A stretch of DNA of 64,000 nucleotides from Thermofilaceae archaeon (GCA_038727095.1 JAVYWK010000009.1:1-64000); one strand, 5' to 3'; positions 6,420 through 48,852 are shown, counted from the stretch's first letter. Notes: generated by a model from the sequence alone, not told the origin. Numbers and translations are program-made.

Positions 6420-6639
6420 CTTTCCATCATTTTGATCGCGTCTTCTATCTCCTTCTTCATACTCTCCTCGACGAGGTTGTAGAGTTTTCTAATCTCTTGA
6501 TCGCTTGGGAGGGGATCTGCTTCGCCAGAGGCGCGAGGTATGAGTACTTTCTACTATCTCTTGATTGCTTCATGGAAGAGATAATAGAAGCTATCAAAGG
6601 ATCAACCGGTAAAGAACTTTCTATTATCTCTTGATCGCG
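6420..6639 (-). CRISPR. Degenerate mini-array, repeat family C (4 repeats)
   Basis: ctttct(a/c)tatctcttgat(c/t)gc copies at 6420, 6485, 6547, 6617 with 42-48 nt spacers; leader-like stretch from 6640. Confidence 0.75.
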
Positions 6640-6879
6640 TCTGTTGTCTGTTTCGGGTGGGGTTTTTAAGCTCTTCCATTCTTTTCGCGCTCCCTCTTTC
6701 CCTTTTTGCGCACAAACCCTTTCCGTGTATGGTTGCGGCTGCCTGTCCCCAGCCCCGGACGGTATTTTCAGCCTTGTTTCCAACCCCAGTACGAAACCCT
6801 TAAAGATCCGCTGCCCTGAATGTTCCCACACATTTCCGTTATTTTTCTGCTGCTTCGGTTTTCGGGTTGAGGGCTTCGG

Positions 6880-7143
6880 CGATAAGGAGGGCGAGCCGAG
6901 TTGCCTTGTAGGCGGTGGGTCTTCGGTTTTACGCTTGGAGGAGGTTGAGGGGGCGAGGGCGCGGATGTGGCGGGCTAGGGTGGACTCATCCCTGCCCAGC
7001 TGCTGGGAGAGCTTCTTGACGGTGGCTTCGCGCTTCGATAGGGCCTGGAGGATCCCGATCTTCTCCAGCGTCTCCCCCCTCTGCTCCAACGCGTACCTTG
7101 TGTCGGGGGGCGGCAACTGGTGGAAGCATGGAGGCAGCTTCAT
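6880..7143 (-). pseudogene. wHTH remnant resembling the C-terminus of Csa3
   Basis: ILQALSKREATVKKLSQQLGRDESTLARHIRAL; no CARF part; frame degenerates downstream. Confidence 0.5.
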
Positions 7144-7507
7144 TTCGTGAAGCGCGAGCCTGCCGGCAGCATGAGAGGGTCAGAGTTGAATGCCTTCAAC
7201 TTCACGCTGTTAAGCTCGAACCTTAGGATTGTAGCGACTGAAAGGACGGCAGCCATTTTTGCGCAACGCTGTTTGCGGTCAGCGGGTGCCCGGGCTGCGA
7301 TCGAGTATGGCTTTAACGCTTCCCGCGGAGGAGCGGAAGAACCCGAGAGACGGAGGGACTACCTCCTAGAGGTAACGGGGACCTGTGATCCGCGTTCCAA
7401 CGTAGCTCGAGCCGGGCGGCTTCCCATTGAAGATGGAAGAAGCTGTTGAAGGGTTGATGAGCTGGAAGAGGGGAAAATAACCGGCTTCGGGGTGGGTTGC
7501 GGGGGTC

Positions 7508-8572
7508 CTACTGCATGGTTAGGGGTATGGGGATTGCCGTCCCGTATCCTAGCTGGCCGCCAGCCTCGCTCAGCGAGCTCCAGTAGAGCTGTTCCAGTGG
7601 GCGGGGGTCGGGGAGGTCGACGAAGATTATCGAGCCTGGCTCGAGGGCTAGGTACACCGGCTTCCTCCTGCCCTTGGACAGGCTGAAGCCCGCCCCGAGC
7701 AGGGCTGTTGAGCCGACAATTCCTAATACTCTTGCGCTGTAGGTGCTAAGCTTTTCCGCGATTACTTCGAGCAGCTTCTCCCTTGTTAGCCCGCACTTGA
7801 ACAGTGCTGGCGAGGCGAGGTAGAGGGCTATGGATCCCTCAGCCTTCTCTCTACCCCTCCAAATCACGCTCTTGATCGTGGTGAGGACGGCGGACCCCTT
7901 CCTGAGGGCAGTGACCCTGCCCTCGCCCCCCAGCTTGACTGCGTAGAAGCTGTCTTCGAGCTGAAGGTTTCTCGCGTCTACGCAGATCTCGACCCCTTCG
8001 GTGTCCGCCGCGGAGAGGACGTAGTCGACGTAGCTGGCGGCGTACAGCAGCCCCCGCTTCTCGTCCGCGACTTTCACGCCCTCAGTTCTCTTCAGCAGTC
8101 CGACGCCTACCCTCTCCTGCAGCTTCCCTAATGCCTGAGCCTTTCTCTCAAGCTCCTTGATCAACTCTCTGTGCAACAGCACCCACTCCTTCGCTTCGCT
8201 GTAGGTCTTCGCCCCCGTCTGGGCTAGCCTCCAGTAGCCCACCGCTAGGCCCGGTAGCTCCCCTAGCCTGAGCCCCCGCTCGCCGTAAGCCACTTGGAAG
8301 TCCCCGCTCTTTAACAGGTAGGGGCCTCTCAACTCCGCGTTGCCCAGCACCGACTTGATCTCCTCCTCCCAGCTCTCCCCACCAGGCATGAGCCCGGGGT
8401 TCTGCTCGAGGATGAGGGTGGCGACAGCGCCCGCGATTGTCGAGGGTGTCGGCAGGCTGAAGCTTCTAGCGCTAGAGTAGATGCCTCTAGAGCTCGGGTC
8501 GAACTCGCCCGCCCTCCTAAACATCATGGGCTCCAGGATTCTGAACCTCAAGCTGAAAGTCTCCCCGCTCAC
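7508..8572 (-). CDS. cmr3: Type III-B Cmr3
   Basis: LEPMMFR, LPTPSTIAGA, KLGGEGR, LYLASPA, PGS, C-terminal LGYG. Confidence 0.9.
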   Translation of the reverse strand: MSGETFSLRFRILEPMMFRRAGEFDPSSRGIYSSARSFSLPTPSTIAGAVATLILEQNPGLMPGGESWEEEIKSVLGNAELRGPYLLKSGDFQVAYGERGLRLGELPGLAVGYWRLAQTGAKTYSEAKEWVLLHRELIKELERKAQALGKLQERVGVGLLKRTEGVKVADEKRGLLYAASYVDYVLSAADTEGVEICVDARNLQLEDSFYAVKLGGEGRVTALRKGSAVLTTIKSVIWRGREKAEGSIALYLASPALFKCGLTREKLLEVIAEKLSTYSARVLGIVGSTALLGAGFSLSKGRRKPVYLALEPGSIIFVDLPDPRPLEQLYWSSLSEAGGQLGYGTAIPIPLTMQ

Positions 8573-11500
8573 ACGAACCCCCTCACCCCGCTCCTAGCGA
8601 GCCTAACGAGCTTGATGATCTCCAGGACTAGAGGCCTGGCTCTACCCGCTCCCTCTCCAGCCTCGAGCAGGAACGCGTTGTAGGAGGCGAGGCTCGCGGC
8701 TAGCCTATCCGCTAAGTCCTCTCCAGCTTTCCTGGCGGCCTTCAGGTTCCTCCTGAGGAGTGTGCGGAAGTAGGGTGCCAACAGCTGCTGGTACCCGAGC
8801 AGGCGCTCCAGCAGAGCGGCGCTGGCAGGGTCAAGCGCGTCGTAGACTAGCGACTCTGAGAACACGCCGCTATCTAGGGCTTTGAGGACGCTTTCAGCGA
8901 GCTCGAGTGCTCCGCAAACGTCGCCGGCCTTGCTGATGCTTTTGCTCTCTCTGAGCAGGACGCAAGCTGTCCTCTCTCCCCCTCCTGGCGCGTAAACCGC
9001 TACTAGCGTGTCTTTCTCGATCGTGCCTTTCGGCGTGCTCCACTTCGCCTCCTTAGCCTGCTGCTCCAACACTTCGTGGGACCTACGCAGCACAGCCGAC
9101 ATCGGGTACCTGTAGTGCGCCTCGTAGACAGCGTAGCTTCTGCCCGCTGGAATCAGAGAGGGCACATGATAGCTTCCCAGTTTCTCGAAGCCCAAATGCT
9201 TCGTTCCTTTACTCTTGCTCCCGACCCCGAACGAGAGCCTCGTCTCAGAGGCGATAGCGAGGGCTCTGGAAACTGGGGCCAGTGCGAGCAAGTCGTCCCC
9301 ACCGGAGTAGACGGCAAAGCCGTCCAGCTCTTCCACGATCTCAATGTCTCTTACCGCAGTTCTCATCAAGGCTCCGCTCAGGGACGCGTGGTAGAGCGGG
9401 CTCACAAGCAGGCCCCCCTCCCTTTTCATCTCATCGACCAGCTCTTTAATCTCGGCGCTCGCTCCGAGCCTGGGCTCCTCCCCGCAGAGCGCGCTCTCCA
9501 CCTTGCTCCTCGCCTCGCCCTCGAGTGCCGAGAGGATGTGCTCCTCCAGCTTCACCCCGAGCGCCTCCTCCAGCTTCCCGGATATGAGCTTGCCAACGTT
9601 GTCGCAGTCCGCCCTTACCAGCGCGTAGTAGACGGTAGTGCCCCCGAGCCTGAGATCCCTGGCGAGGCTGAGCCACTTCTTCCTGTTCTCCTCGCTGAAC
9701 CAGAGTAGCTCCGCGCACATCGTCACAAGTAGCTCTAGCAACGCTAAGGACTGTTCCAGCTCCTTGCCCTTCCCGGCCCTCTCGCGGAGCTTGCCGAGCA
9801 ACACCTGCTGCTTCCTCCAGAATGCCGTGCCCTGCGGAGCGACTGGCCTTCCGAGCTGGAAGAGACTGTCCATCAAGGTTTTCACCACCTTCTCCCGTGC
9901 CTCCCCGCTCTCTAGCGCCTTCTCCAGGAGCGCCTGCCTAAACTCTACCGAGGCTACGTCGGAGGTGGATGGGAATGATACCTCGAAGCGCCTAGGTTGC
10001 GCGGGCGCCCCGAGGAGGCTTTTCAGCATAATCTCCGGCTCTAGGGCCATGATCCTCTTGGCTAGGCAGTATGGGCAGAGCTTCTCGCCGCCAGAGAAGT
10101 AGGGCTCAAGGCTGAGAGCTAGGCTCCTCGCTTCATCGCGCGTCACGCCGAGCTCCCTCTCGAGGACTCTCAGGAACTCCTCTCTACCCTGCTCTCTGGG
10201 AACGATCAGCACTGCTGGGAGCTCTCCGCAGGAGGTGCAGTAGTCGAAGCCCCTCCCAGACCTAAACTCCTTGGGCCAGCCGACATCCCCGCTCGTCCAT
10301 GAGGTAAGGTCTAGCTCGCTCGCGTAGCTCACTCTGAAGAGTTTCTCCCTGCCCAGCTTGTACTGAAGCTTCGCGAATAGGCAGTGGTACAGCTTTTGCA
10401 AATGCTGTGGCCCCAGCTCCTCAAGGATTTCTGAGACCTCGACGGTTATCACCCTGATGGGCAACGGGGGAACCCGGTCGAACCCTACTTTCTCCACTCC
10501 CTCTAGCTGCTCAGCGAGCTTGCCTAAGAGCTTACCCATCGCGTCGCCGCCTCGCCCTTTCAACCCCAGGATTGAGCTCCAGATGGAACTCCACGCTTCC
10601 CTGTACCTCTCGACCGCGTATTTCTCCAGGCTCTCTCGGTCCTTTATCGTCGAGTCTACGTACTGCTGAAGAACCTCGTAGTCGGGGAGCACCAGCAGGA
10701 GCGTGCCCGGCACCACGGCGTAGAGCGGGTACGTGTCCCTCTCGGGGTTGTAGCCGCTGACCTTCTCAATCACGTCCTCCACGCTCTCAGCCAGCTGCCT
10801 ACTGCCGATCGATGAGAGGAGCGAATGGTAGTAGAATGGGTTGTACCTGCATGTCGGCATCACGAGCACGTCGGGGCCCAACTTCTCGATGAAAGTCCAA
10901 GCCGTCCTCCAGGCCAAGGCGGAGACGAGGTAGCTTGACACCCACAAGTCCCTGAGCTTCCTGGATCTGGAGATGAAGACCTGGATGCTGGGGATGTCGA
11001 TCATTAGGAGCAGCCCGCTCGGCTCCTCGCCATGGAGGAGCCAGTTCAGCGTCGAAGCCGTTGCGTAAACTTCGTCGAAGACTGTGGCGGTTGGGGCTCT
11101 GAGGTCTACAGGGTTTGAGGGTCCTCCCAGCCCTACCCAGAGAGCCTCGTAGAAAGCGTAGAGAAGGTGGTAGGCATCCCTCTCGCTGCTAGCCTTGCGG
11201 AGCAGCTCGTTAAGGCTAGCTGCTAATTCGCTGGTCACTCTGCTGACGCTGTCCGGGCTAGCCTCCACCTTCACCTCGAAAGCTGGGTTGAACAGGTTCT
11301 TGAGCTTCAGGCTCTTAGCGGGCGCTCCTCCTGCGAGCTCGGCCAGAAGTCTCTCAGCGCTCAGCGACAAGAGTCTAGCCTTCCTGATCCTCGGGTCTGT
11401 AAGCATGCCAGCCGCCTCCGCTAGGACGGTGTCTTTGAGGATCTCGCCAGCTACCCTTAGCGCTTCCTCCTCGTGAGGCTTGATCCCCTGAGGAGAAAGC

Positions 11501-11589
11501 GGCGCGCTGAGCACGCCAGTCTCCACCCAGGGCTTGTCCACCGGCTCGTGCAGCAGAGCCGCAGCCTTGAGGAGGAACACCTGCTTCAC
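8569..11589 (-). CDS. cas10: Cas10/Cmr2 with intact Palm2 GGDD and degenerate HD
   Basis: IQVFISRSRKLRDLWVSSYL, CxxC...CxxC zinc site, RADCDN, YSGGDDL; N-terminal LLHEP instead of LLHDP. Confidence 0.95.
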   Translation of the reverse strand: MKQVFLLKAAALLHEPVDKPWVETGVLSAPLSPQGIKPHEEEALRVAGEILKDTVLAEAAGMLTDPRIRKARLLSLSAERLLAELAGGAPAKSLKLKNLFNPAFEVKVEASPDSVSRVTSELAASLNELLRKASSERDAYHLLYAFYEALWVGLGGPSNPVDLRAPTATVFDEVYATASTLNWLLHGEEPSGLLLMIDIPSIQVFISRSRKLRDLWVSSYLVSALAWRTAWTFIEKLGPDVLVMPTCRYNPFYYHSLLSSIGSRQLAESVEDVIEKVSGYNPERDTYPLYAVVPGTLLLVLPDYEVLQQYVDSTIKDRESLEKYAVERYREAWSSIWSSILGLKGRGGDAMGKLLGKLAEQLEGVEKVGFDRVPPLPIRVITVEVSEILEELGPQHLQKLYHCLFAKLQYKLGREKLFRVSYASELDLTSWTSGDVGWPKEFRSGRGFDYCTSCGELPAVLIVPREQGREEFLRVLERELGVTRDEARSLALSLEPYFSGGEKLCPYCLAKRIMALEPEIMLKSLLGAPAQPRRFEVSFPSTSDVASVEFRQALLEKALESGEAREKVVKTLMDSLFQLGRPVAPQGTAFWRKQQVLLGKLRERAGKGKELEQSLALLELLVTMCAELLWFSEENRKKWLSLARDLRLGGTTVYYALVRADCDNVGKLISGKLEEALGVKLEEHILSALEGEARSKVESALCGEEPRLGASAEIKELVDEMKREGGLLVSPLYHASLSGALMRTAVRDIEIVEELDGFAVYSGGDDLLALAPVSRALAIASETRLSFGVGSKSKGTKHLGFEKLGSYHVPSLIPAGRSYAVYEAHYRYPMSAVLRRSHEVLEQQAKEAKWSTPKGTIEKDTLVAVYAPGGGERTACVLLRESKSISKAGDVCGALELAESVLKALDSGVFSESLVYDALDPASAALLERLLGYQQLLAPYFRTLLRRNLKAARKAGEDLADRLAASLASYNAFLLEAGEGAGRARPLVLEIIKLVRLARSGVRGFV

Positions 11590-12485
11590 CCTCTCAAACC
11601 CCGCGCCCAGTTGCCCCTTCCGACTCTCTCGTAGCTCTCGGCCCTGAGGGCTGAGTAGCCGGCAGACGTCTTAGCCCCCACGCCGAAGTACAGCGCGTAG
11701 AGTACTGCGAGGTCTACCAAGCCTAGCGCGCTCTTCTCCGGCTTAGGCTCTGCTGCTGCGTCGCTGCCCGCCTCCAGCTTGAGCTTCCTCTCGCCCCTCT
11801 CCGGCACGAAGTACACGTAGAACTGGAAGGAAGTACCGGGGGCGACGCACAGGTAGGTCACTGGCACTGGCTGGGCTTCTAGCTCAGTCCTAGCGCCTCG
11901 GTAGTGGGGCGTTAGCACGTCCGGGTAGAGGATGTACCCCTTTTCGCCCGCCTCCACGGGGTAAGCGTCCGTGAACCCGACGAGCCCAGCCCCGACCTCC
12001 GGGCTCCCGAAGAGGCGCTTTGCATCCTCCTCTCTCCCGCCGAGCGAGATGTAAGCGCTCCTGACAGCTCCCTTGATCGTGGAGGCCGGTATGAAGGGTG
12101 CGTTTAGGATAGGGTCGAAGGAGAGGCCGATGTCGAAGGCTACTCTCCCGAAAGACGTGCTAACCCCGAAAAGCCCTCTTGAAACCAGTTTCGCCCTAAC
12201 CCTCCTAACCTCATAGCCCAGGCTTATGAGGGCCCCCTCCAACTCCTCGAGAAGCTTCTCGATCTTCATCCTGTTCACGGTGAAAGTCCGTGCTGAGGCT
12301 TTCACAAGTTTCTCGAGAGTCTCTCTCTCCAGCTTCTCCACACCTTTCTGTTCACTCTTCTCGAGGGAGAGGTGTACGCTACTCAGCGCGATGTACGACC
12401 AGAAGCTCGTGCCCTCCGTAACGGCTTGATCTAGGATCTGCCTGAGGGAGCCGAGGTCAATCCTCTCCTCCTGCACGCGCCTCAC
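11586..12485 (-). CDS. cmr6: Type III-B Cmr6 (start probably GTG at 12485 or 12476)
   Basis: PFIPASTIKGAVR, LFGS, FTDAYP, DVLTPHY, GVGAKTSAGY. Confidence 0.92.
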   Translation of the reverse strand: MRRVQEERIDLGSLRQILDQAVTEGTSFWSYIALSSVHLSLEKSEQKGVEKLERETLEKLVKASARTFTVNRMKIEKLLEELEGALISLGYEVRRVRAKLVSRGLFGVSTSFGRVAFDIGLSFDPILNAPFIPASTIKGAVRSAYISLGGREEDAKRLFGSPEVGAGLVGFTDAYPVEAGEKGYILYPDVLTPHYRGARTELEAQPVPVTYLCVAPGTSFQFYVYFVPERGERKLKLEAGSDAAAEPKPEKSALGLVDLAVLYALYFGVGAKTSAGYSALRAESYERVGRGNWARGLRG

Positions 12486-13861
12486 CTCTGCAAAATCTCC
12501 ACTACGAAGTTCCATGCTGTCTCGAAGACCTCTACTAATTGCTGTTCCAGGCTCAGCCCCTCCAGGCTCCTGAGCTTCCCCGAACTCGGATCCCGTATTT
12601 CCCTTAGCAGTGAGCACACCGACTGCTCCCCTCCCCCACCTATGTGTACGAAGCTCTCTCTCTTTAAGAGGTCGAGCCAATCGAAAGTCAGGAACCCGCA
12701 CACCGCTACGTAGTAGCTCCTGCGACTGCCCTTCTCGGAGGGGATCACGGAGAACAGTATGGCCGATTGCCTCCTCAGGTTCTGGTATCCTGAGGCTGTC
12801 TGCTCAACGTAACCTGTCTTCTGACCCTCATATTCAGAGGATCTAGGCAGCCCTAGAATCCACGTGTGGTACTTCTCGCTCGATTCCTTCCTAGGGTCTA
12901 ACTTTAAAGCCTGTTTCCACGACGCTTTAAGCGTAGCACTCCCTATCCGGCTCAACGCGGAAGTCGGGTCGGGGAAAGGCTTATTGATAACCTGTATTCT
13001 AAAGAGGGGGGCACGGGTCTTGCCGACGGTAATCTCTTTCCTGCTCAACACTGGATAACGCGGTAGCTGTGTTCCCTGCGCCGGCTTGAGCTTCTCAGGT
13101 ATCCGCGATAGGTACTGCTTAGCTACGCTCATAGCGTTATCGATTAAGCTGTTGAGGCACTCCTGCACATCCTGGGGGTTTCCAGCTGCGTACATTCTGC
13201 TTAACGTGTCCTGCAGGATCCTACACCCCTTATCCGCGCACGACACGCTCAACTGCGTTGAGCCGAAACCCCTGTTCGTGATCGAGCCGACACCGCCGAG
13301 AGCCAGGCTCAGCACAAGCGAGTAAAGGGAGAACAGCTTCTCCTCGCTGGAGAGGCTAGCGTGAGGCCTCCTAAAAAGCTCTATGGTGAAGCGAAGCTTA
13401 CCGGGACTAAAGTAGCGCCTGGGATTCTCCTCACTCAGGTAGCGCCTCTTATCCTCACTGCGCGGCGGCCTAAACAGCTTTAGTCTCGCTATCCTTTTAA
13501 TTCTCTCCGCCTCCTCAACTCCCGCTTGCACGGTTCCAGCCGAGACTCTCAGCGAGAGCTTTGACGCTGAATTCGTGCTGCCCAAGACTGGCGCCACCAG
13601 CTCGTCGAGGTCCTCAAGGCTGGAGGGAAAGTCACTGTACTCCTCGTACCATGCGCCTGCTACGAGTGCTCTCGCCCACCATCTCCAAACTCCTCTGATC
13701 GCCTGAGACCTCGGCCTTTCCTGCAAGTCTAGCTCCGAGCTGTACGGCCGGGCGTTGTAGCCCCCTATTCTCGTTATCGTAACATTCCTCACGTGGATCC
13801 TCGCGACTAGACCCCCCCTAGATAGTTCCTCCGCGATCTCCTCAAAAGTAGGGCTCATCAC
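12482..13861 (-). CDS. cmr1: Type III-B Cmr1
   Basis: IRGVWRWWARA, LGGVGSITNRGFG, LGLPR, RRQS. Confidence 0.9.
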   Translation of the reverse strand: MMSPTFEEIAEELSRGGLVARIHVRNVTITRIGGYNARPYSSELDLQERPRSQAIRGVWRWWARALVAGAWYEEYSDFPSSLEDLDELVAPVLGSTNSASKLSLRVSAGTVQAGVEEAERIKRIARLKLFRPPRSEDKRRYLSEENPRRYFSPGKLRFTIELFRRPHASLSSEEKLFSLYSLVLSLALGGVGSITNRGFGSTQLSVSCADKGCRILQDTLSRMYAAGNPQDVQECLNSLIDNAMSVAKQYLSRIPEKLKPAQGTQLPRYPVLSRKEITVGKTRAPLFRIQVINKPFPDPTSALSRIGSATLKASWKQALKLDPRKESSEKYHTWILGLPRSSEYEGQKTGYVEQTASGYQNLRRQSAILFSVIPSEKGSRRSYYVAVCGFLTFDWLDLLKRESFVHIGGGGEQSVCSLLREIRDPSSGKLRSLEGLSLEQQLVEVFETAWNFVVEILQR

Positions 13862-14349
13862 TCTCCACCCGGCTTCTCCCTAGTGTAGACAGCCTCGGCC
13901 AGCTTCTTCAACTGGATACAGTAGGGCGTGAGGAGCTTAGCAGCTAGAACCTGCACGTCGACCAGCTCTCCCAACGCCTCCACTGGCTGCGCCGGGTCCT
14001 TCTTCAGAACCCCTAGCTCGCGGAGGTAGGAGAGCACCAGGAAAAGGTAAAACGCGTAGCCACCCTCTTCCTTCCCAATCACTTTCTTTCCCCTCTCTCG
14101 CTGAGCTTCCGCCCCCCACCCTTTTTGCCAGGCGCTTACCACTCTGTTGTATGTGCTCTTGGTAGCCCTCGCAAAGCAGAAGCTGAGCGCGGGAACCAGG
14201 CCCACGTCCTCAATCATGCTGAGTACCGATCTTGCCCTCGCCCTGAAGCTCTGGCCCATATCTTCGTCGAGGATGCCTGACTCGATGCCCTGTGCGATGA
14301 GGTTTTGTAGCTTGCTGAAATCCTCCACCGCCCTCCGAACCGGGTCCAT
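13858..14349 (-). CDS. cmr5: Type III-B Cmr5 (small subunit)
   Basis: FRARARSVLSMIEDVGLVPALSF, LKKLAEA; position in operon. Confidence 0.85.
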   Translation of the reverse strand: MDPVRRAVEDFSKLQNLIAQGIESGILDEDMGQSFRARARSVLSMIEDVGLVPALSFCFARATKSTYNRVVSAWQKGWGAEAQRERGKKVIGKEEGGYAFYLFLVLSYLRELGVLKKDPAQPVEALGELVDVQVLAAKLLTPYCIQLKKLAEAVYTREKPGGE

Positions 14350-14359
14350 GACCACCCCC

Positions 14360-15313
14360 CTACAGGAGCTCAAGCTTGACTATCCCGCGCCCTATGGTCT
14401 CGTGCCCGCCTATCACCAAGTAGTTCTCCCTCTCCCTCAGCTTCTTGAGGAGCTTCTCCCTAACTTCCCCGGCGCACAGCTCCTCTTTTCCAAAGACCTG
14501 CTTCATCCCATTCATCAGTTCCTTCGAGCTCCTAGGCACCCGAGGCTTCGAGTAGAGCAGTACTGTGTAAAGTAAAGTCTCCCTCGGTATGTACTCCTCA
14601 GTCCATAACCCCCCCTCCTCAACAGTCTTTGTCTCACGGCTCAGCCTCACGCGGGTCACCCTCATAAGGCTCTTCTCCACAGCCCTCCCCACCTCCTCGT
14701 CACTGAGCAGCATCAGCCTCTCCTCCTCAAGCCCGAGCACTCTGGCAAGCTCAGTGAGGCTCGAGCCCACACCGCTGTCGGACTTCGGGTTCAGCCAGAG
14801 TTCCTCGTTCACCACCACCTTGCTTAGCTGTGGAACCAGGAAGAGGTCGCTGCGAACCACATAGACCTCTCCCCTTCTCACACTTACTCCGGATAGTGCC
14901 TCCACCGCCCTCTTAAGACTCTGGAATTTGCTGCCTGCGGGGCCTGCCTTGCTGAGAGACCCTACCAGCTCGGCGTAACCTCTACACCTCTTCAGGAGCA
15001 AGGGAGCCGTCGCGTAGCCGTAAACCCCGATCAGGCTTCTAACCGGAAACGCCAGGAGGTAAGCGTCCAGCACCGCCACCGGCGAGGAGAACTTCTCCAC
15101 CTCCTCTACCTCCGGCCCGAAGAGGAAGCTAGCGAGGGCTCCACCGATAGTGCTCTTCATCGCGCCCTTGAGACTCGAGCCGTAGATCATGGGGAAGCCC
15201 AGCCCGTCCCTCTGCACAGGGAGATCGACAACCTCACCGCCCCTCCCAACCCCGGGGTGGAGCGCAGTAACCGTCTTTATGAGAGCAAAATCGGCTAGCT
15301 CATAGCTCATCAC
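14360..15313 (-). CDS. cmr4: Type III-B Cmr4 backbone RNase
   Basis: LHPGVG, VDLPVQRD (catalytic Asp present), GSSLKGA, LWTEEY, IGGHETIGRG. Confidence 0.95.
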   Translation of the reverse strand: MMSYELADFALIKTVTALHPGVGRGGEVVDLPVQRDGLGFPMIYGSSLKGAMKSTIGGALASFLFGPEVEEVEKFSSPVAVLDAYLLAFPVRSLIGVYGYATAPLLLKRCRGYAELVGSLSKAGPAGSKFQSLKRAVEALSGVSVRRGEVYVVRSDLFLVPQLSKVVVNEELWLNPKSDSGVGSSLTELARVLGLEEERLMLLSDEEVGRAVEKSLMRVTRVRLSRETKTVEEGGLWTEEYIPRETLLYTVLLYSKPRVPRSSKELMNGMKQVFGKEELCAGEVREKLLKKLRERENYLVIGGHETIGRGIVKLELL

Positions 15314-15473: not shown

Positions 15474-15676
15474 CAATTCAAGAGATAGAGTCTGTTGGAG
15501 AACCTTCACACAGTGTTCACAATTTATGATACAATCAAGAAATAATAGAAATTTCGAACCAATTAAAGAGCTTTTCATAGTCTGTTCGCTCGATGCAATC
15601 AAGAGATAATAGAAAGAAGCAATACGATGTATTTAGCCAGGGCTATGACTAGAATCAATTAAGAGATAATAGAAAG
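15474..15676 (+). CRISPR. Degenerate mini-array, repeat family C (3-4 repeats), convergent with array 1
   Basis: gcaatcaagagataatagaaag at 15595; variants at 15474, 15531, 15655; ~60 nt period. Confidence 0.75.
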
Positions 15677-15720: not shown

Positions 15721-18700
15721 CTTTCAATTCATTCCTTGTTGATACGTGAGCGTTTGGCCTGGGAAATACCTGTCGAAGCGCGGCATCTTTCAATTCATTC
15801 CTTGTTGATACTGGGACACCGGGTGGAGCGGAGGGAGCAGCGGCAGAAGGCTTTCAATTCATTCCTTGTTGATACCGTGATCGACCTGGCGAGGCGGCTG
15901 GGGGCGAAGGTCATTGTGCCCTTTCAATTCATTCCTTGTTGATACTCGAAAAGAAGAAAGGGGTTTCCCACTCGGTGGTCGACTTTCAATTCATTCCTTG
16001 TTGATACGTGGGTGTTGACGCGAAGCTTCTTCTCCGCGTACTTCTCTTTCAATTCATTCCTTGTTGATACGCGAAAGTATGAGATTCTGAGGAGGAGGGG
16101 TTTTACTGACTTTCAATTCATTCCTTGTTGATACGAGTTATACGTGGCGAAGCAATACGCAGCAGTGATTCACCTTTCAATTCATTCCTTGTTGATACAC
16201 TTAAAATTCCCCAAAAAATGGTAGAAAAAACTTTAGACTTTCAATTCATTCCTTGTTGATACACGTGTGCCGACAATGTGACGCCTATTTCGTTCAACTT
16301 ACTTTCAATTCATTCCTTGTTGATACAGAGGTGGCAGATCATCAGCCTCCTCCGAGACATAGCAGCCTTTCAATTCATTCCTTGTTGATACAACAACACC
16401 TTTGCCGGGACAGTGGATGTGAGGATTGCTTTCAATTCATTCCTTGTTGATACAGTGCTACGCCAGTGTTAGTAATACAATCACCCCGATTTACTTTCAA
16501 TTCATTCCTTGTTGATACCAAAGTTTATAAAGGCGCGTACGGTGTTAAGCAATGACTTTCAATTCATTCCTTGTTGATACCTGGCAGAGCTTGATACTAA
16601 AGTGGGAGCAATTTTGGACTTTCAATTCATTCCTTGTTGATACATTATTTTCAAAAACGTCTTTCCACGACAAGTTTCAATCTTTCAATTCATTCCTTGT
16701 TGATACTGATGGAGAGTGCTCGTGCTGCTGCTAGGGGTGTTTAACGTCTTTCAATTCATTCCTTGTTGATACTGATCCAGGTTTCAGCCGTAGCCGTGTG
16801 GCAGCGGAAGACTTTCAATTCATTCCTTGTTGATACCGCTCTCTACAATGTAGCTCCGGAGTGCAACGTAATCGTCTTTCAATTCATTCCTTGTTGATAC
16901 GTGTAGAGGATTACTGGTACACTAGACCGAACCTGTCTTTCAATTCATTCCTTGTTGATACGTAACGTTACACATTAGTGGAAAATGTCAGCGCTGCGGC
17001 TTTCAATTCATTCCTTGTTGATACGGAGGAAGACGGTTTAGGCTAGCCGTGATGGATTATCTTTCAATTCATTCCTTGTTGATACTTGATACAGCAGAAG
17101 CAGGACTACTGGGTTAAAACGCTCAGCTTTCAATTCATTCCTTGTTGATACGCGCCGGTGAAGTGCCCATTATTTTCTCTGTCTTAGACTTTCAATTCAT
17201 TCCTTGTTGATACCTGTAACCCTGCTTGATCAACCGCTCTAGCGCAACCATCAGCTTTCAATTCATTCCTTGTTGATACCAAAGGGTTTTATGCGAAATT
17301 ATCTGAGAAAGAGCTCTTTCAATTCATTCCTTGTTGATACTCGCAGCGATCTTCGGTTAACAATTCATATAGAGGTGACCTTTCAATTCATTCCTTGTTG
17401 ATACACGTTATAATTGTTTCGGAAACTGATGAAATTGTTGACTTTCAATTCATTCCTTGTTGATACATGTTCAAGCTATCGTAGGGTCACAGCCCGTTTC
17501 GCCGTCTTTCAATTCATTCCTTGTTGATACGCGAGCATATATCGATAAGAAACGTAAAGAATTAATGAAATCTTTCAATTCATTCCTTGTTGATACGATA
17601 GCGCCGGTCACGGCAATGGCTGCAGGCATTGCGTTAACTTTCAATTCATTCCTTGTTGATACTTGACAGTGAAAATCGATAATGCGTTGCAAACATTGAA
17701 CTTTCAATTCATTCCTTGTTGATACCAGAAGGGTGAACGCCTTGAATATCCGAGCCCTACAGATCTTTCAATTCATTCCTTGTTGATACTTACTAATTTT
17801 GATATGTATACTTCAGTGGCAGGTTTCTTTCAATTCATTCCTTGTTGATACCCGAAAGTTGCACCTGCTGTCACAACTGCCGTTACGACCTTTCAATTCA
17901 TTCCTTGTTGATACAGAGCGTGGTCGTTCAGCGGCTCATGGATATGGGGTTCAGCTTTCAATTCATTCCTTGTTGATACTTACGGTAAACTCTACTGGCG
18001 ATTCAACCGCTTTTATTTCTTTCAATTCATTCCTTGTTGATACTGGGTGCGAAGACCTATTTCTACTATCGATTGTATCCACTTTCAATTCATTCCTTGT
18101 TGATACGTTGCTGACGACGGCAACTGACGCGCCGAATGCAATTATCTTTCAATTCATTCCTTGTTGATACGTCATTGGTATCACCATACGATACGGCCGG
18201 CGATTAAATCTTTCAATTCATTCCTTGTTGATACCAGTGTTACCGATGTGGTTGCTTTTACTTTGAAATTCTTTCAATTCATTCCTTGTTGATACCCCTA
18301 TCACTGTCTACTGGGGCTAGACCCACGAAAGTGCTTTCAATTCATTCCTTGTTGATACACAATTTTGTGCGCTAGACAGTAACCCCACTCCCCCCATGCT
18401 TTCAATTCATTCCTTGTTGATACCAGCCTGAACGGGTCACCTGCATAGTGGCGACCCAACCTTTCAATTCATTCCTTGTTGATACAATTATGTTGTTTTT
18501 CGTAGCGTCGTTACGTTAGTATTTCTTTCAATTCATTCCTTGTTGATACGTGTACCAATTCCACTAGCATCTTGAACGCCGTTGTAAACTTTCAATTCAT
18601 TCCTTGTTGATACAAAAGGAATGATGAAATCGAAAAAGCCGCGAAGAAGGCTTTCAATTCATTCCTTGTTGATACCGTTATTGGCACCGATGCTGTAGCG

Positions 18701-20258
18701 CTGGTAGTAGACCTTTCAATTCATTCCTTGTTGATACTGTACGATCGCAGCAGGATCGTTGCGATCAAGAAGACTTTCAATTCATTCCTTGTTGATACCA
18801 TATTCCTTCACCATACAATTCTTCCTGCGATTAAATCTTTCAATTCATTCCTTGTTGATACGATACCGTACGATTTGGCGACAGTCGAAGCCTACCGGCC
18901 TTTCAATTCATTCCTTGTTGATACGTTTACGCAGCTGCGGTGAACGTAATGCTTATTGCCCTTTCAATTCATTCCTTGTTGATACGGACATTTCGTCCCC
19001 GCTAGAATAGGTTCTAATATAGCTAATCTTTCAATTCATTCCTTGTTGATACACAATACAACTCCCGACTGCGACATTATAACAAACATCTTTCAATTCA
19101 TTCCTTGTTGATACATGGAGGCGAAGAGCTGATATGAGCGCCAGGAGAGTCCCTTTCAATTCATTCCTTGTTGATACCTAAGAGCGGGGAGACGGGGAGG
19201 GTCGAGTTCGAGGACACCTTTCAATTCATTCCTTGTTGATACCGACGTACAGCGACGTCGAGCAACGGCTGCAGGACAACTTTCAATTCATTCCTTGTTG
19301 ATACGTTTAACCGATTATACGTTTTATAGTGCGATACTCAGCTTTCAATTCATTCCTTGTTGATACACAAGCTTCTAAGGCCCATGAGATGCTGAAAAAA
19401 CTCTTTCAATTCATTCCTTGTTGATACTAAATAATTTCCATCTTTGAGACTGGCAGTCTTTAACTCTTTCAATTCATTCCTTGTTGATACGGCAATCGGT
19501 GAGCCGCGGTACCTGGTTGTGAGGGGGGTCTTTCAATTCATTCCTTGTTGATACGCCCTACGGCTCGCCCTGGAGAGCCACGACGGCTTCCACTTTCAAT
19601 TCATTCCTTGTTGATACCTTAATCACTCCCTCTTTTATTTCTACTTTTTCTTTCACCTTTCAATTCATTCCTTGTTGATACCCTCTATGAATAATAGGAA
19701 AGTGCCGAAAACTATCACTTTCAATTCATTCCTTGTTGATACACCTGCCCGGCGGCACATCCACCACCACGTCATCCCGATCAACTTTCAATTCATTCCT
19801 TGTTGATACCTGGCCCGGGAGATCCAGACACCGCAGTTTGTGCACTCTTTCAATTCATTCCTTGTTGATACGCGGGGAGGAGCGGGGGTGCCGGCTGGTG
19901 GGCCCCAGACCTCTTTCAATTCATTCCTTGTTGATACTAAAGCGGTACAATTTGCTATTCTTTCGGATAACTTTATCTTTCAATTCATTCCTTGTTGATA
20001 CTGATCGGCAAGCGCGTCAACATCATTCTGCGCAACTACTTTCAATTCATTCCTTGTTGATACTTGACACAGTCGTAGACGCGATTGATTCCACATTAAG
20101 TGTTAACTTTCAATTCATTCCTTGTTGATACGCATAGTGTCAAAGATTGATGCTGTGTTGCAAACATCTTTCAATTCATTCCTTGTTGATACAAAAGAAA
20201 AATTTCAAAAGGAGTTAGAGAAATACGAAAAGCCTTTCAATTCATTCCTTGTTGATAC
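15721..20258 (-). CRISPR. CRISPR array 1, ~72 repeats GTATCAACAAGGAATGAATTGAAAG (family A)
   Basis: 25-bp ctttcaattcattccttgttgatac repeated with 36-45 nt spacers; orientation from the GAAAG 3' end and the leader at right. Confidence 0.99.
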
Positions 20259-20385
20259 CGTTGTCCCGCGTGTTTTCCTCGGGTGCTTTCTCCCTCAGGT
20301 TTGGCTCCTCGGGCTGGGTGTTAAGTTTTTCCTTGGGGAGTTGGGTTGCTCAACTCCCTCCACTCGGGGCTGCTCCACGCGCTGG
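20259..20385 (-). promoter_or_regulatory. Leader of array 1
   Basis: Reverse complement aligns with the array 2 leader (agcgcgtggag...caactccccaaggaaaaacttaa...ggaaaacacgcggg). Confidence 0.85.
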
Positions 20386-20442
20386 TGGTGGCTGCTTGAG
20401 TATTTTAGCGGTTAGTGTTTATTACCGCGCGCTTTTCTTCTC

Positions 20443-22061: not shown

Positions 22062-22259
22062 GGGACTCCTCGAGTACCCGGGGTCGGAAAGTTATAAGGT
22101 TGGCGTGGTAGGTTAGAATGAGTTATGCAACTCTAACACCATCGATCAGGAGTCCCATCCTGGGGCAACCTCGCAGTTGAGCTGTACGGTGCAACTTAAA
22201 CTTAAAACTCGAGAGTAAAAGTATAAATACCTAAAGAATTTGTATTCTAGCGAAGAATT

Positions 22260-23845: not shown

Positions 23846-23878
23846 TGAAGCGCTCCACCCAGCATATAGGGTGTTTGA

Positions 23879-30951: not shown

Positions 30952-31074
30952 CGCGTGGAGTCCCCCCGTGTGGATAACGTCGGGCTCTGCAACTCCTCAA
31001 GGAAAACTTTAACTCCCGCCTCTAGGAGTTGCACTGGAACGAGGGAGCACGAGCGGAAAACACGCGGGGGATCG
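30952..31074 (+). promoter_or_regulatory. Leader of array 2 with BRE/TATA-like aggaaaactttaa
   Basis: Similar to the array 1 leader; 10-bp inverted repeat tgcaactcct/aggagttgca flanks the TATA-like element. Confidence 0.85.
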
Positions 31075-33983: not shown

Positions 33984-34191
33984 AAGATGCTGTTTCGGTA
34001 AAATATGGTATCGATTTGGAAAACATTCAAAAATCGCTATCGTCGTAGCTACGGTAACCTATGAAGTCTGTGTAGAGCTTAGGTAGCTTCACTGTAATCA
34101 CAGCTTTTACGCCGCGTGTGCTTGAACTATTATTGAACTTAGTGGGAAGCTTTATTAAAAAGGCTGAACCCGTTCGGGTGGTTAGAAGCCT

Positions 34192-35187: not shown

Positions 35188-35537
35188 GTAAACGGAAAGG
35201 AGATACAGCAGGACAGAACGCGAGTAGCACAAGTGTCGAACTGCAACGCTGCTACGATGTATCGGGAACGGACTCTGTTACTTTAGCTAAGTCTCACGAT
35301 GCACATGCGCGAGATAGTCGCCCCCGCCGTTAGATGCTAGCTCGACGCAGCCATTTCTTTTCGCCTGGGGCTGCGACGATCCCCCTCAAGGTTTGAAGGG
35401 GTACGTAGATGGAGAGCATTACATCTACACCTTGTATCTTCTAGGCCTCCAATCGCACCGCATCACTTGCTTATAACGTTACATAGCGCTCCCCGCCTCG
35501 TTGAAACAGATGGGCGAAGAGAAGGGCCAGAAGGGAC

Positions 35538-35752
35538 GCAATCAAGAGATAATAGAAAGACAGCATTTTCACATTATTTTCACATTCACTTTTACATTGA
35601 AAAAGAAAAGAAAAATGCAATCAAGAGATTATAGGAAGCCTCCCTTCATCAAAGTCAGCGGCGCAATCGAGAGATGAGATAAAAGGAGGGCAGTTTACGA
35701 AGATTATTCCCTTGTGCTCAAACATTGATTGGGGCAATCGAGATGATGGGAG
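35538..35752 (+). CRISPR. Degenerate mini-array, repeat family C
   Basis: gcaatcaagagataatagaaag at 35538; decaying copies at 35617, 35663, 35734. Confidence 0.6.
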
Positions 35753-36966
35753 GACTGTTCTGCTCTGATAGTCCTTTGTGAGATCCCCTAGGTGCTTGAG
35801 GCAAAAGAAAGATGGTCAGAGGGGCGCGGTGGAGCGCTATCTGAGAGAGTACCGCCATTTTCGTCCTCCTCTTTTTACTTTTACAGCTACTTCGAGTGAG
35901 GGCTAGTAAACGAAGCGTTGTCTGGGCGCCCCGCAGCATAATGTACGGGGATTGCGCAAGACTCTGAGCACTCCAGCCGGTGGTCCATGCTGGTTGGTGC
36001 GTTGCGAGCGCTTGCCACTATCCCGTCCTAACGTGCGACAGACGCATGGAAAAATGATGCATGCACTCGTGACCCGACACCCCCGAAGCCGAGAGTCACG
36101 AGGTGCAAAGCGGGAATCTTCATGATGAAAGAGCCCCTTACGATCAAAAGTCTCCAGCCTCGACTTGAAGGCCGACTGGGCTCACACCATGAAGCCCTTC
36201 TGACCGCAGAGGAGGATGGTTGCGCCGTCAGAAGCCTCTCACCCTCAAGCGGCGCTCAGCTGACGCTGCGCCTGCATACCCTTCCCCTTGGTTGAGCCCC
36301 TGTGGGTTGGGTGGGACCGCGGACTTGGTGCCAGCTTGGATCGGGATGTACCGTCGTCGGGCTGGGGGCTCATGGGTTGGGTGGAGGGGTACGTGATGCG
36401 CGAGAGGACGGATGTGGCTCTTAAAGGGGCTTGAGATAACCGTTTACTAGCACCCTGGGAAGGAAATTCATGTGGCAACTTTGCAGTAATCGTAGCAGTT
36501 ACGCTCGAGAAGATAAGGTATGCTTTAGGATACTGCGATGAATCAGGCTGCTATCAACAGCAATACCGGCGTAATACTATTTTTTAGTTTATGGTCGCAT
36601 TACAGAAAATTTACCCTTTATCTTAGGTGGCACCCAGCCACTAAAAGTATGCTAACCATCACCTTTTTCTACAGCTCTGTATTAAGAATAGTTCTTTCTA
36701 CAAGATTGTTCACCAATTTGTTTTCAGTTTTCACGTCCATGTTGTAAAATGATGTCGCTTGCTTAGTACTGTAAATTTGGCCTATTATCTTTGCAACTGC
36801 TAGTACTGTCGCCTCGATAAGCATGGTATGAGGCTTAATGCATCAAGGATAGAAGATTGAGGGGCTCCTGAAAAGAGCCTGTATTCACCCCGATTAGATC
36901 TTTCCGCTCCTTACTTTGAAGCTTAATGCGGCGCTCAGCTCGCCCGTTGGCAGTATAGAGGAGCTG

Positions 36967-41622: not shown

Positions 41623-41624
41623 TA

Positions 41625-41762
41625 TTTTCTACTATCTCTTGATAGCGCCGATAATGACGAAGCTTTATTGGAAAATAAGTTTATGAAAAACTTTCTACTA
41701 ACCTCTTGATCGCGTTCAACTACAAGTACTTGTGGGAGAATTTAACTCTTCCTCTTATCGCG
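41625..41762 (-). CRISPR. Mini-array, repeat family C (2 clear plus 1 degenerate repeat)
   Basis: ttttctactatctcttgatagcg (41625), ctttctactaacctcttgatcgcg (41691); 43-nt spacer. Confidence 0.65.
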
Positions 41763-42084
41763 CACGCTTTTTTGTAAACAACCATGCAGACTCTGAGACG
41801 CTTACTTCGCTCCTCTCTCCCTGAGCTCGCGGCTCGGAAGTAGAGAGCTGAGGCGTGGAGTCTGTGACACGGTCGTTCTCGATAAAGTCTGCCTCCTCTA
41901 CAGGCTTCCCCCGCATAGCCCACGTACTGTTCAGTAAAGACAGTCTGCACAACGATAGCGAGAGGAATCTGTCGTACTTGAGGTACATTCGGGATGACAT
42001 CAGCATCCCACAGCGAGTCCCCAGCCATACCGCTTCAACCACTTCACCTACGACCACGGCTTGAGAGGAGTCCCCCCTTGAAGA

Positions 42085-42401: not shown

Positions 42402-42546
42402 CTTTCAATATTGATACTGACGGCGAAAACACACGAGAAAAATATCAATCGATTCTTCGCTTTCAATTCATTCCTTGTTGATACCCGCGTTTCCTTGACG
42501 TGGTATTTGCGCTGGAGGATGCTTTCGATTCATTCCTTATTGATAC
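42402..42546 (-). CRISPR. Orphan mini-array with family A repeat (3 repeats, 2 spacers)
   Basis: Perfect repeat at 42460, 2-mismatch copy at 42522, internally deleted copy at 42402. Confidence 0.85.
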
Positions 42547-47714: not shown

Positions 47715-48087
47715 CAAGGACCCCTCTAGCCGTCGAGACAGCCTCCTCCGCCTGCTCCCTTGTGATCTCCTCGGAGGGCCTCTCCACGCCGGCACTCGGG
47801 GACCTGGCCACCGTGTAGTACGCTGAGAGCCTGAAGAGGGCCCCCTCGCTAATCTCGCCGAGCAAAATGCCAGCGCCCTTGGCTCTGCGGTAGAGCTTGA
47901 CGAGGTCGTGCCTTCGAGCGTACCCGCCCAGAGCGTGCAGTATCAGAGCCTTCAACGCCTTCTCGGCCGCCTGCTGGGCCGCGAAGCAGGCCCAGTTGTA
48001 GTCGCCCACGCTGATGCTCACCTCCGCGTGACGGAGGTCTGCTCTAGCCTCCGCCAGCCAATCCAGCGCCTCATCCCTTACGGGCAT
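47683..48087 (-). CDS. HEPN-domain protein (pair 2)
   Basis: YNWACFAAQQAAEKALKA, HDL, YTVARSP. Confidence 0.9.
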   Translation of the reverse strand: MPVRDEALDWLAEARADLRHAEVSISVGDYNWACFAAQQAAEKALKALILHALGGYARRHDLVKLYRRAKGAGILLGEISEGALFRLSAYYTVARSPSAGVERPSEEITREQAEEAVSTARGVLDEVAKALQDP

Positions 48088-48292
48088 CACCGCACCCCCT
48101 GGATCCCCCAAAGCTCGCAGGCAGATTAAAAGCGTCACCAGCGCAAAGCGCGAGGGAAGCGGAGCGCCCGCGCTTCAACCACAGCAGGAGTCAGCCACCT
48201 CCGCAGAAACTGCCGTCCCGTGGCCGCATGCTGAAGTGTGATGCCGATGGAGTGTTGTCGGCTGCGCGAGGGGTGCGCATGCCAGAGAAGGG

Positions 48293-48727
48293 TTGAGCGG
48301 TGATGTTGTGAAAGCCTTCGAGGTCGCAAACCACCAGGCTTATTTGGATCGCCCGAGGGCTTTTCCGGGTGAGGGTGTGCACGTGAGGGAGGCTGTCAAG
48401 CTGCACTGCGGTGGCAGGTCGGTAGAGGTTGCAGCGCTTGTGGATACAGGCGCTACCGCGCTGGTCCTGCCCAGGCGCGTGGCCGAGGAGCTGGGGGTGA
48501 AGCCCCTGGGGAGGATGGTCGCTGAGCTCGCGGACGGGACCGTGAGAGAGGTGGACTACGGGGCTGTTGAAGTCGAGGTGAGCGGCAGAAGGGCGCCCGT
48601 GCTCGCCGCAATCGTTGAGGGAGGAGAGGTCCGCCTGGGAGCGGAGGCCCTGGAGAGGCTAGGCCTAGCCGTTGACCCAACTACCGGTAAGATCCATCCC
48701 ACGAGAAGGTTCGTGACGAGACTCTGA
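48293..48727 (+). CDS. Clan AA aspartic protease (true start probably near 48377)
   Basis: ALVDTGA, LADG, RLGAEALERLGLAVDP. Confidence 0.85.
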   Translation: MSGDVVKAFEVANHQAYLDRPRAFPGEGVHVREAVKLHCGGRSVEVAALVDTGATALVLPRRVAEELGVKPLGRMVAELADGTVREVDYGAVEVEVSGRRAPVLAAIVEGGEVRLGAEALERLGLAVDPTTGKIHPTRRFVTRL

Positions 48728-48830
48728 AAGCCACTAGGCCGGCGCCACCTGGCACTGTCGAGAGGCACCTCACCGTAGAGCTCCCGCTTGAACCCACCCT
48801 TAGGGCTATCAGGTGGCCTCTGCTATTGTA

Positions 48831-48852
48831 CTTTCTACTATCTCTTGATTGC
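48831..48852 (-). repeat. Solitary family C CRISPR repeat
   Basis: ctttctactatctcttgattgc, identical to the copy at 6547. Confidence 0.75.

Follow-up and report, generated by a model that had tools for sequence, protein, structure and literature searches.

The DNA considered here is a stretch of 64,000 nucleotides (nt) from a Thermofilaceae archaeon (GCA_038727095.1 JAVYWK010000009.1:1-64000), referred to below as the window, which is part of a 68 kb contig (C9) of a 1.86 Mb genome (G000) that comprises 52 contigs and is 92% complete. The window carries an island of CRISPR repeats and cas genes, in which a type III-B (Cmr) module is followed by a type I-A cassette with two long arrays, A and B. 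Units of a third repeat, designated repeat C, are scattered over five sites of this island, and the origin of these units is the subject of the present account. Genomes are designated by G, their contigs are given after the genome (as in G002:C16), and individual loci are designated by L.

Repeat C units and their surroundings in the window

Repeat C is 25 nt long (GACGCAATCAAGAGATAATAGAAAG), and a variant that differs from it at two positions is designated C' (GAAGCAATCAAGAGATAGTAGAAAG). The pattern GCRATCAAGAGATARTAGAAAG has 9 matches with at most 3 mismatches in the window, compared with a mean of 0.00 in 100 dinucleotide-preserving shuffles, none of which (0/100) reached 9. When the candidates are aligned to the 25-nt consensus, the five sites comprise 16 direct units (4, 4, 4, 3 and 1 at sites 1 to 5) and one inverted partial unit (Table 1). 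A preliminary description of this DNA had placed a third CRISPR-like repeat at these five sites, and both the coordinates and the strands were borne out when the sites were read and the units aligned to the consensus. The same description held that the repeat shares little beyond a 3' GAAAG with the repeats of the two long arrays, which was too strong, since an ungapped comparison gives repeat C 16 identical positions out of 25 with repeat A and 15 out of 25 with repeat B.

Table 1. Positions of the repeat C sites and of neighbouring features in the window; fractions give identities to the 25-nt consensus of repeat C, or of C' where named
Feature	Position	Strand	Remarks
PIN gene	2815-3267		
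csx1	3606-5120		
cas4 3' fragment	5555..5857	-	relic of the I-A(C) module
Site 1	6420..6641	-	stub array of four C/C' units, the first two near perfect and the last two degenerate
Site 1 units	6617-6641; 6547-6571; ~6483-6506; 6420-6442	-	24/25; 25/25 to C'; 19-20/25; 20/25
Inverted partial repeat copy in spacer 1 of site 1	~6572-6590	+	14-nt exact reverse complement of the repeat core
Site 1 leader	6642..6845	-	TATA-like CTTAAAAA box ~30 nt before unit 1
csa3 C-terminal (wHTH) fragment	6829..7065	-	relic
Type III-B (Cmr) module	7508..15313	-	Pfam Cmr3, Cmr2_N/Cas10 palm2, three RAMPs
Site 2	15474..15676	+	four-unit leaderless C fragment
Site 2 units	~15474-15495; 15528-15552; 15592-15616; 15652-15676	+	19/25; 21/25; 24/25; 22/25
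Foreign I-A(A/B) cassette	15721..35187	.	arrays B and A, cas6-cas1, Csa1/Cas4-like open reading frame
Array B	15721-20258	-	72 repeats
I-A(A/B) genes	20443-30951		cas6, csa3, cas7, cas5, cas3', HD protein, cas1
Array A	31075-33983	+	46 repeats
Csa1/Cas4-like open reading frame	34192-35187		
Site 3	35535..35753	+	four-unit leaderless C fragment; degrades toward the 3' end, trailer-like
Site 3 units	35535-35559; 35614-35638; ~35660-35685; ~35731-35753	+	25/25; 21/25; 22/25; 17/25
HEPN/nucleotidyltransferase toxin-antitoxin genes	39354-40103		
Site 4	41625..41766	-	three-unit C'-like fragment upstream of an orphan open reading frame (41082-41525)
Site 4 units	41625-41649; ~41691-41717; ~41742-41766	-	21/25; 23/25 to C' with an insertion; 18/25
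B-family mini-array	42402..42546	-	two 25-nt units (one with 2 changes) and a 16-nt internally deleted unit
PIN gene	42844-43341		
Site 5	48831..48854	-	solitary C' unit, intergenic; 24/25 to C'

Perfect or near-perfect units are found at site 3 (the first unit), at site 1 (the second unit, matching C') and at site 5. Spacers are regular at site 1 (45, 40 and 40 nt) and inside site 2, where the inner ones measure 39 and 35 nt and the one after the degenerate first unit 32 nt. They are irregular at site 3 (54, 21 and 45 nt) and at site 4 (~24-30 and 41 nt); with its one unit, site 5 has none. Among the five sites leader similarity is seen at site 1 only, and no leader-like sequence was found at sites 2-5 in a comparison with the leader of a 35-unit C array that lies elsewhere in the genome (contig C13). 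A scan with Rfam returned no family at gathering score, and a scan for tRNA genes found none.

Within spacer 1 of site 1 lies the inverted partial copy of the repeat, the 14-nt length of which is reached by none of 200 shuffles. This piece is predicted to pair with unit 2 (minimum free energy -24.9 kcal/mol, z = -2.64), and 4 of 200 shuffles fold as well; it is more likely a rearrangement scar than a target.

Sites 2 and 3 are both on the plus strand, like the C array of the sister genome described below, and they bracket the I-A(A/B) cassette. Site 2 is situated between the start of cmr (15313) and the trailer end of array B, and its last C unit faces the terminal B repeat, which is in the opposite orientation, at a distance of 44 nt. 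At this point (window 15677-15745) two arrays of different families form a tail-to-tail junction, the gap of which is exactly one spacer length. Site 3 begins 348 nt past the Csa1-like open reading frame (ORF) and ends 330 nt ahead of DNA that is again syntenic with the sister genome, and its degenerate units (GCAATCGAGAGATG...) are similar to the degenerate repeat that closes the C13 array. A comparison by eye of the 44-nt linker after site 2 with the DNA before site 3 revealed no target-site duplication or common sequence. The first spacer of site 3 does not look like a normal one, in that it contains three tandem copies of an 11-12 nt motif (CATTTTCACATT; 35564-35598) followed by an A-rich run; the motif could be a candidate protein-binding or promoter element.

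The I-A(A/B) cassette is foreign to the genus. Its DNA has no match in any of the four congeners (4/4) except for 130 nt of cas1 at 71%, and its proteins are 24-37% identical to those of the C-type I-A module of the sister genome. Repeats of the A/B type occur in 0/4 congeners, 5/8 genomes of genus g7 and 1/2 genomes of g6. No close donor was found, as the five genus g7 genomes give only patches at 64-78%, and the ends of the cassette are therefore not mappable by homology. The congeners also show only short, weak DNA matches to the Cmr module, in which the Cmr5 match is weak (E 0.0033, below the curated cut-off).

Site 4 lies inside a 2.4 kb stretch (window 40380-42762) that is absent from the sister genome, where 28 nt join the flanks. 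Neither the orphan ORF downstream of the site nor a second one at 41720-42028 has a Pfam match. The B-family mini-array is located 0.7 kb from site 4 in the same stretch and shows no leader similarity to array B; its presence shows that the formation of relics is not special to repeat C. Site 4 and the two orphan ORFs are bracketed by an inverted pair of a ~65-nt sequence (40704-40765 and 42087-42153, 78% identical). This sequence is multi-copy in the sister genome (G002:C3 at ~122.4, 123.3 and 124.9 kb; G002:C16 at ~23.8 kb, just past the 113-unit array described below) and appears to be an element resembling miniature inverted-repeat transposable elements (MITEs) or another dispersed element.

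The corresponding locus of a sister genome and the repeat C family elsewhere

An intact C locus is found at the syntenic place of a sister genome (G002), the identity of which to the window in the common flanks is 90-99%. The contig G002:C16 corresponds over positions 1-4065 to window 1113-5176 (99%) and over 5296-5683 to window 5488-5868 (93%), and its DNA homology stops at window position 5868. A complete I-A module, here termed I-A(C), occupies positions 5367-15175 of that contig, whose minus strand carries cas4, cas1, csa1, cas3'', cas3', two ORFs, cas7 and csa5 and whose plus strand carries csa3; downstream of csa3 follow a leader and then 113 perfect C units (15361-22910). Beyond the array, positions 25196-28760 correspond to window 36083-40379 at ~90% (the first piece being 25196-25375, window 36083-36261), and positions 28788-28982 to window 42763-42956. 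What the window retains of this locus is the 3' end of cas4, the 3' end of csa3, the leader and the four units of site 1, in inverted orientation. Between the C relics there now lie the Cmr module and the distantly related I-A module with arrays A and B, and sites 4 and 5 are placed further along the same variable island. The counterpart of site 1 in the sister genome is the 113-unit array; sites 2 and 3 have none, site 4 is absent and site 5 has drifted.

Both cas fragments next to site 1 are truncated. In a tblastn search with the Cas4 of G002, residues 80-180 of 180 are kept at 97% whereas the N-terminal 79 residues are gone, and the fragment covers only positions 83-158 of the 160 positions of the Pfam profile Cas_Cas4. 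The csa3 fragment corresponds to residues 155-235 of the 235-residue Csa3 of G002:C16, with 49/84 identical and the N-terminal domain gone; its opening ~38 residues differ from G002 at one position, after which the two diverge. The site 1 leader is 80.9% identical over 230 nt to the leader of the 35-unit C13 array. An alignment of four C-family leaders (site 1, G000:C13, G002:C16 and G002:C18) over ~205 columns shows the latter three to be mutually 96-97% identical and the site 1 leader to be the outlier, at 77-79% to each. The C13 and G002:C18 arrays have an upstream flank in common. Because the upstream csa3 end is common to the leaders of site 1 and G002:C16, site 1 is the positional counterpart of the big G002:C16 array, cut down to a stub with a diverged leader.

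The solitary unit of site 5 has a positional ortholog in G002:C12 that differs from it by 4/25 changes, in a surrounding alignment of 784/927 (85%). The unit seems to drift in a neutral-looking manner, being no better kept than its flanks (84% versus 85%). An insert of 16.5 kb (G002:C12:3305-19833, L011) is present in the sister genome at a point that matches window 49424/49547, ~0.6 kb from site 5. Since this insert carries a cas6 and an array that belongs to a fourth repeat family (GAAGCAGCTAGGAAAGAATTGAAAG), along with short matches to Cmr-like DNA, the stretch around site 5 is also part of the variable CRISPR-Cas island. In another contig of the same genome (G002:C71), a cmr3-like piece is located between the homologs of window 43673 and 45923.

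Three properties that would be expected of relics can be compared with these observations. An intact locus is present at the syntenic position in a close relative (G002:C16), truncated cas genes (cas4 and csa3) are present at the break points, and the units evolve no slower than the surrounding non-coding DNA, as judged from two comparisons (site 5 and the site 1 leader).

Long arrays of repeat C are present in both genomes. The C13 array (G000:C13 16409-18750) has 35 C units, which are perfect save for the last (one change), with spacers of 38-52 nt, a leader and one degenerate terminal unit. No cas genes were found beside it, and its neighbours are ribose-5-phosphate isomerase and ABC transporter genes. 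In addition to the 113-unit array on C16, the sister genome holds a second long C array of 78 units on G002:C18, to which the C13 array (G000:C13:16201-18830, L001) is orthologous by its upstream flank. None of the 34 C13 spacers is common with the 77 spacers of G002:C18, an array that ends ~185 nt from the contig end, so that the trailer part could be missing from the sample. In the long C arrays the spacer length is 36-58 nt.

The repeat pattern is found at no more than 2 mismatches in 7 of 41 related genomes, including G002 (191 matches), G020 (84), G026 (36, of a variant) and G001 (6, all C'). The repeat also occurs in public records of metagenome-assembled genomes assigned to a Thermofilales archaeon, Thermofilum sp. 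and a Desulfurococcaceae archaeon, and C' occurs in at least 120 metagenome contigs with arrays of up to 76 units; these loci were picked by an exact repeat match, so that "perfect" units are built in. Among 2.9 million viral contigs there are no matches to the repeat. Repeat C/C' is a normal, currently used CRISPR repeat family of a Thermofilum-like hot-spring genus. In 80 of the metagenome loci the site 1 leader has no match among the C' leaders at E <= 1e-8 besides its own locus (L074 and L092), and the C13 leader matches 24 of the same 80 loci at 71-77%. Site 1 is thus not obviously of C' origin, since its leader is without matches outside L074 and L092. Short remnants of the family are not restricted to the window, as in G001:C41 the end of a C' array is followed by a gene and then by a 2-unit stub. 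A complete genome of a neighbouring genus (G015:C1) contains many dispersed arrays of 3-10 units of an A-like repeat, small arrays being located at ~22, 345, 356, 359, 371, 455 and 570 kb. It may be that short arrays are commonly dispersed in this way throughout this family of archaea.

Sites 1 and 2 with their flanks are covered by contigs from all four hot-spring DNA runs (4/4), which come from four studies. The pieces that cover site 1 are 1104 nt long (5916-7018) in three runs and 585 nt long (6149-6732) in the run X12; each has one gap and differs at 2-8 letters, and none has gained a spacer. Site 2 is present in 4/4 runs, with a 3-nt insertion at 15500. Two metagenome contigs of the Joint Genome Institute (L074 and L092) match the flanks of site 1 at 98.5-99.8%. 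Of these, L092 matches window 5686-7096 as a whole at 99.3%, and L074 runs from beyond site 1 as far as the region upstream of cmr, with 94.6% identity there. The constancy of site 1 at the strain level is weak evidence for selection or constraint, because these populations are ~99% identical to the window and represent nearly the same strain.

It had been noted that only one cas6 is present, which holds for the window and fails for the genome, as a second intact cas6 is located at G000:C5:3064-3912 (PF10040, E 2.2e-11). Its product is 28% identical to that of the window cas6 (20443-21402) and 96% identical to the G002 ortholog. Positions 1-4694 of G000:C5 correspond to G002:C5 81027-76380, and window 1-1239 corresponds to G002:C5 81655-82893; if the arrangement is collinear with that of G002, the second cas6 would lie ~4 kb to the left of window position 1. 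Homologs of this cas6 (E <= 1e-10) are found in 5/5 genomes with at least 5 C units and in 4/36 others, the related genomes not being independent, and its identification as the C-family Cas6 is only a lead. No cas1 other than that of the A/B module was found in the 92%-complete genome, and at the site 1 locus the C-type I-A module is deleted, adaptation genes included. The C13 array therefore raises the question of which Cas1, Cas6 and effector serve it now that its own I-A module is gone.

Origin of the scattered units

The scattered units are probably the decaying leftovers of one or more ordinary C/C' arrays and their associated I-A module, which were broken up as the island was rearranged and other CRISPR-Cas modules replaced them. 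As a sequence of events, ~9 kb of I-A(C) genes would have been deleted, and at least one inversion, suggested by the present arrangement, would have flipped the segment that consists of truncated csa3, leader and stub, with or without cmr. The Cmr and A/B modules would have been inserted, or brought in as replacements, via recombination in or beside the C array, and the leaderless units would afterwards have drifted neutrally. Site 1 may still yield two or three CRISPR RNAs (crRNAs), which could be processed by the Cas6 encoded on C5 and would be loadable by Cmr; if made, these crRNAs would be a by-product of this origin rather than the output of a dedicated regulatory circuit. No intermediate stage of the inversion-plus-deletion scenario was found in any contig. 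The preliminary description had offered recombination scars of an older array family as one of two readings. The scars are supported by the synteny with G002, the truncated cas4 and csa3 and the drift of site 5, whereas "older" has to be dropped: the family is neither older nor extinct, given a perfect, leader-bearing array of 35 units on C13 and a matching cas6 nearby.

Several observations weigh against this explanation. The near-perfect units imply either recent events or something that maintains them, since pure neutral decay would erase such units before long, and at site 1 the TATA-like box and the two good units are kept across 4/4 DNA runs. The leader of site 1 may have had a separate origin by recombination instead of having decayed in place, because ~38 codons of csa3 differ at one residue from those of G002 while the adjacent leader is only 77% identical. 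Perfect C' elements of one or two units are also present inside other metagenome contigs; 19/120 of the metagenome loci have no more than 4 units, and several of these are contig-interior. At one such locus (L133:1-400) the degenerate trailer of another family (GATGCAACTTAGGAAGAATTGAAAG) runs directly into a C' pair, one unit perfect and one degenerate. Some 180 nt downstream of this pair a csa5-cas7-...-cas3'-csa3 module begins, and a C' array comes after the module. A placement of this kind upstream of cas genes has been described for regulatory mini-arrays (PMC10120712), and the pair could equally be another junction of array ends.

The spacers of the mini-arrays offer a further line of evidence. 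Twelve mini-spacers were examined, with seed comparisons restricted to exact matches. In blastn-short searches none of them matches a spacer of the three long C arrays (223 spacers) or anything in the genome at E <= 0.1, where only chance words of 11-12 nt are found. On the 68 kb contig, the longest exact matches are 9-12 nt for the mini-spacers, the exception being the self-complementary spacer 1 of site 1, versus 9-15 nt for 149/151 control spacers, with the remaining 2/151 matching at 25 nt. Within 2.5 kb of the sites the longest exact match of 10/12 spacers is 7-10 nt, a length reached by 22-200 of 200 shuffles; besides the self-complementary spacer, only spacer 1 of site 3 departs from this, with a 12-mer of low complexity that 2/200 shuffles reach and that is one of 12 tests. 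A protospacer search in the viral contigs with a 22-nt piece of one mini-spacer per site (sites 1-4) gave no exact match, a weak negative in that the scan takes exact matches only. Matches to promoters, which the preliminary description had suggested looking for among the spacers, are thus no better in exact seeds than those of control spacers or shuffles, and conservation across strains, which it had also proposed to test, is limited to populations ~99% identical to the window, where the mini-arrays are kept; they are not kept as units in G002.

With respect to site 1 itself, a tentative and on the whole doubtful alternative is that it is a live small CRISPR array, transcribed from its leader, processed by the second Cas6 and used by Cmr or Cascade for ordinary immune memory, and that only sites 2-5 are scars. 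This proposal overlaps with an origin as leftovers and differs from it only in that site 1 would still work. The leader is homologous to that of the 35-unit array and retains its CTTAAAAA box, but it is the divergent outlier (77-79% versus 96-97%). Units 1 and 2 are well preserved (24/25 and 25/25), but units 3 and 4 are degenerate and the inverted piece in spacer 1 is predicted to sequester unit 2. An intact cas6 of a kind that co-occurs with C arrays is nearby and the site comes immediately downstream of the cmr operon, in the same orientation, whereas the neighbouring C-type adaptation genes are deleted. The locus is stable across 4/4 DNA runs, but the populations compared show no gain of a spacer, and the 22-nt piece of spacer 2 is without a viral match. 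It is also conceivable, if rather unlikely, that the C array acted as a landing pad or recombination substrate for the exchange of modules (Cmr, and the I-A module with both arrays). The direct C units at sites 2 and 3 could then loop out the 20 kb cassette or move it from one strain to another, and site 1 would have been kept to supply C-type guides (handle ATAGAAAG) to the incoming Cmr. If this were true, CRISPR arrays would be portable attachment sites for the traffic of cas modules in hot-spring Thermofilaceae.

The other reading of the preliminary description, in which the mini-arrays and the solo unit work as a network of crRNA-like regulatory or addiction elements (CreA/CreR/crlRNA) and direct Cascade or Cmr to the promoters of cmr, orphan or toxin-antitoxin genes, is improbable. 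The form fits, with one good unit next to degenerate units. Site 2 stands by the cmr start and site 4 by an orphan ORF with an AT-rich, promoter-like region, HEPN/nucleotidyltransferase and PIN genes are near, a C' mini-array is found upstream of csa5 in L133, and such elements are reported for 6-12% of I-A and III-B loci in the survey of PMC10120712. The spacers, however, show no seed excess over shuffles or, contig-wide, over control spacers, and no site is a conserved mini-array in G002. The truncated cas genes that adjoin site 1 explain its presence without a function. Solitary repeat units can act as RNA anti-CRISPRs, and neither a CreA-type nor an RNA anti-CRISPR network gains support here, with no seed excess, no conservation in G002 and no viral matches. 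An import of the units by mobile elements integrated in the island, such as viral or plasmid mini-arrays or solitary units with an RNA anti-CRISPR role, is very improbable. Site 4 does lie in a 2.4 kb stretch that G002 lacks and that bears the ~65-nt inverted pair, multi-copy in G002; against this, the 2.9 million viral contigs have no match to the repeat, tRNA genes are absent, a scan of ORFs next to the sites gave no integrase or viral Pfam domain, and sites 1-3 are explained by synteny with a chromosomal array. Least credible of all is an assembly artefact, in which repeat reads would have been mis-joined in a metagenome-assembled genome. The genome is in 52 contigs and 92% complete, and one contig of the run X7 joins 6641 to 15591 via 24 repeat letters, all that it has on the short side; this joint was set aside as repeat-mediated. 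For sites 1 and 2 an artefact is ruled out because independent contigs from four runs of four studies cover them with unique flanks and because L074 and L092 match the site 1 locus (98.5-99.8%), L074 reaching the cmr upstream region at 94.6%.

Relation to known systems and other features of the island

The case is a clear fresh example of known phenomena, namely remnant repeats and module exchange, and it does not constitute a new kind of system. Shmakov et al. (2023, PMC10120712) report standalone repeat-like sequences, many of them partly degraded, at 43% of I-A loci and 42% of III-B loci. The same paper describes Francisella genomes negative for type V-A in which a degenerate repeat and a solitary unit are left after the loss of the locus (PMC10120712). 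As in the window, the degenerate or solitary units mark the place where relatives hold an intact locus; the present case differs in that Cmr and a distant I-A module took the place of the locus, truncated cas4 and csa3 and a leader survive, and the repeat family is still in use. Modules for adaptation, for interference and of the Cmr type pass from genome to genome in Sulfolobales and other archaea, and repeat, leader and Cas1 co-vary (PMC4390879). Swapped modules and several repeat families per genome are features common to those genomes and the one considered here, whereas the exchange is, in the account of PMC4390879, mainly inferred from discordant trees. Here the states before and after appear at one site in two sister genomes with the scars in place. 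What looked like a third, orphan repeat network thereby becomes a datable natural experiment, in which one site can be viewed before and after the replacement of a CRISPR-Cas module. It may be of use for understanding how archaeal CRISPR-Cas islands swap modules, and it is a caution against taking every ectopic repeat for a regulator.

Locus F of Saccharolobus (Sulfolobus) solfataricus is transcribed. It resembles the leaderless sites as a small array without a leader, the spacers of which are static while leader-bearing arrays turn over (PMC4390879); sites 2-5 are much shorter, and their repeats are degenerate. The CreTA, CreR and crlRNA elements share with the sites a pair of repeat-like sequences, one of them degenerate, around a spacer-sized segment in an island with toxin-antitoxin genes (PMC8501985, PMC9458426, bioRxiv 10.1101/2023.03.10.532045). 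The CreTA/CreR class is defined by a partial match between spacer and promoter, whereas the comparison of exact seeds gives no promoter match here and the elements are not conserved in G002. Virus-borne mini-CRISPR arrays and solitary units likewise consist of one to a few units that match the host family (PMC6858448), but the present units are in a chromosomal setting and the repeat has no match in viral contigs. From these comparisons the sites appear to belong neither to the CreTA/CreR class nor to the class of virus-borne solitary units. In titles and abstracts of the literature on Thermofilum and CRISPR nothing was found on these repeats, and the supplementary tables of PMC10120712 may list archaeal I-A/III-B mini-arrays.

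The left edge of the island (window 26-2754) is occupied by a NurA-like gene with a helix-turn-helix domain and a HerA-like ATPase gene, which are followed by a PIN gene and csx1. Toward the other end of the window, at 54625-54685, there is a tandem duplication of 30 nt in 2.0 copies with a 90% match.

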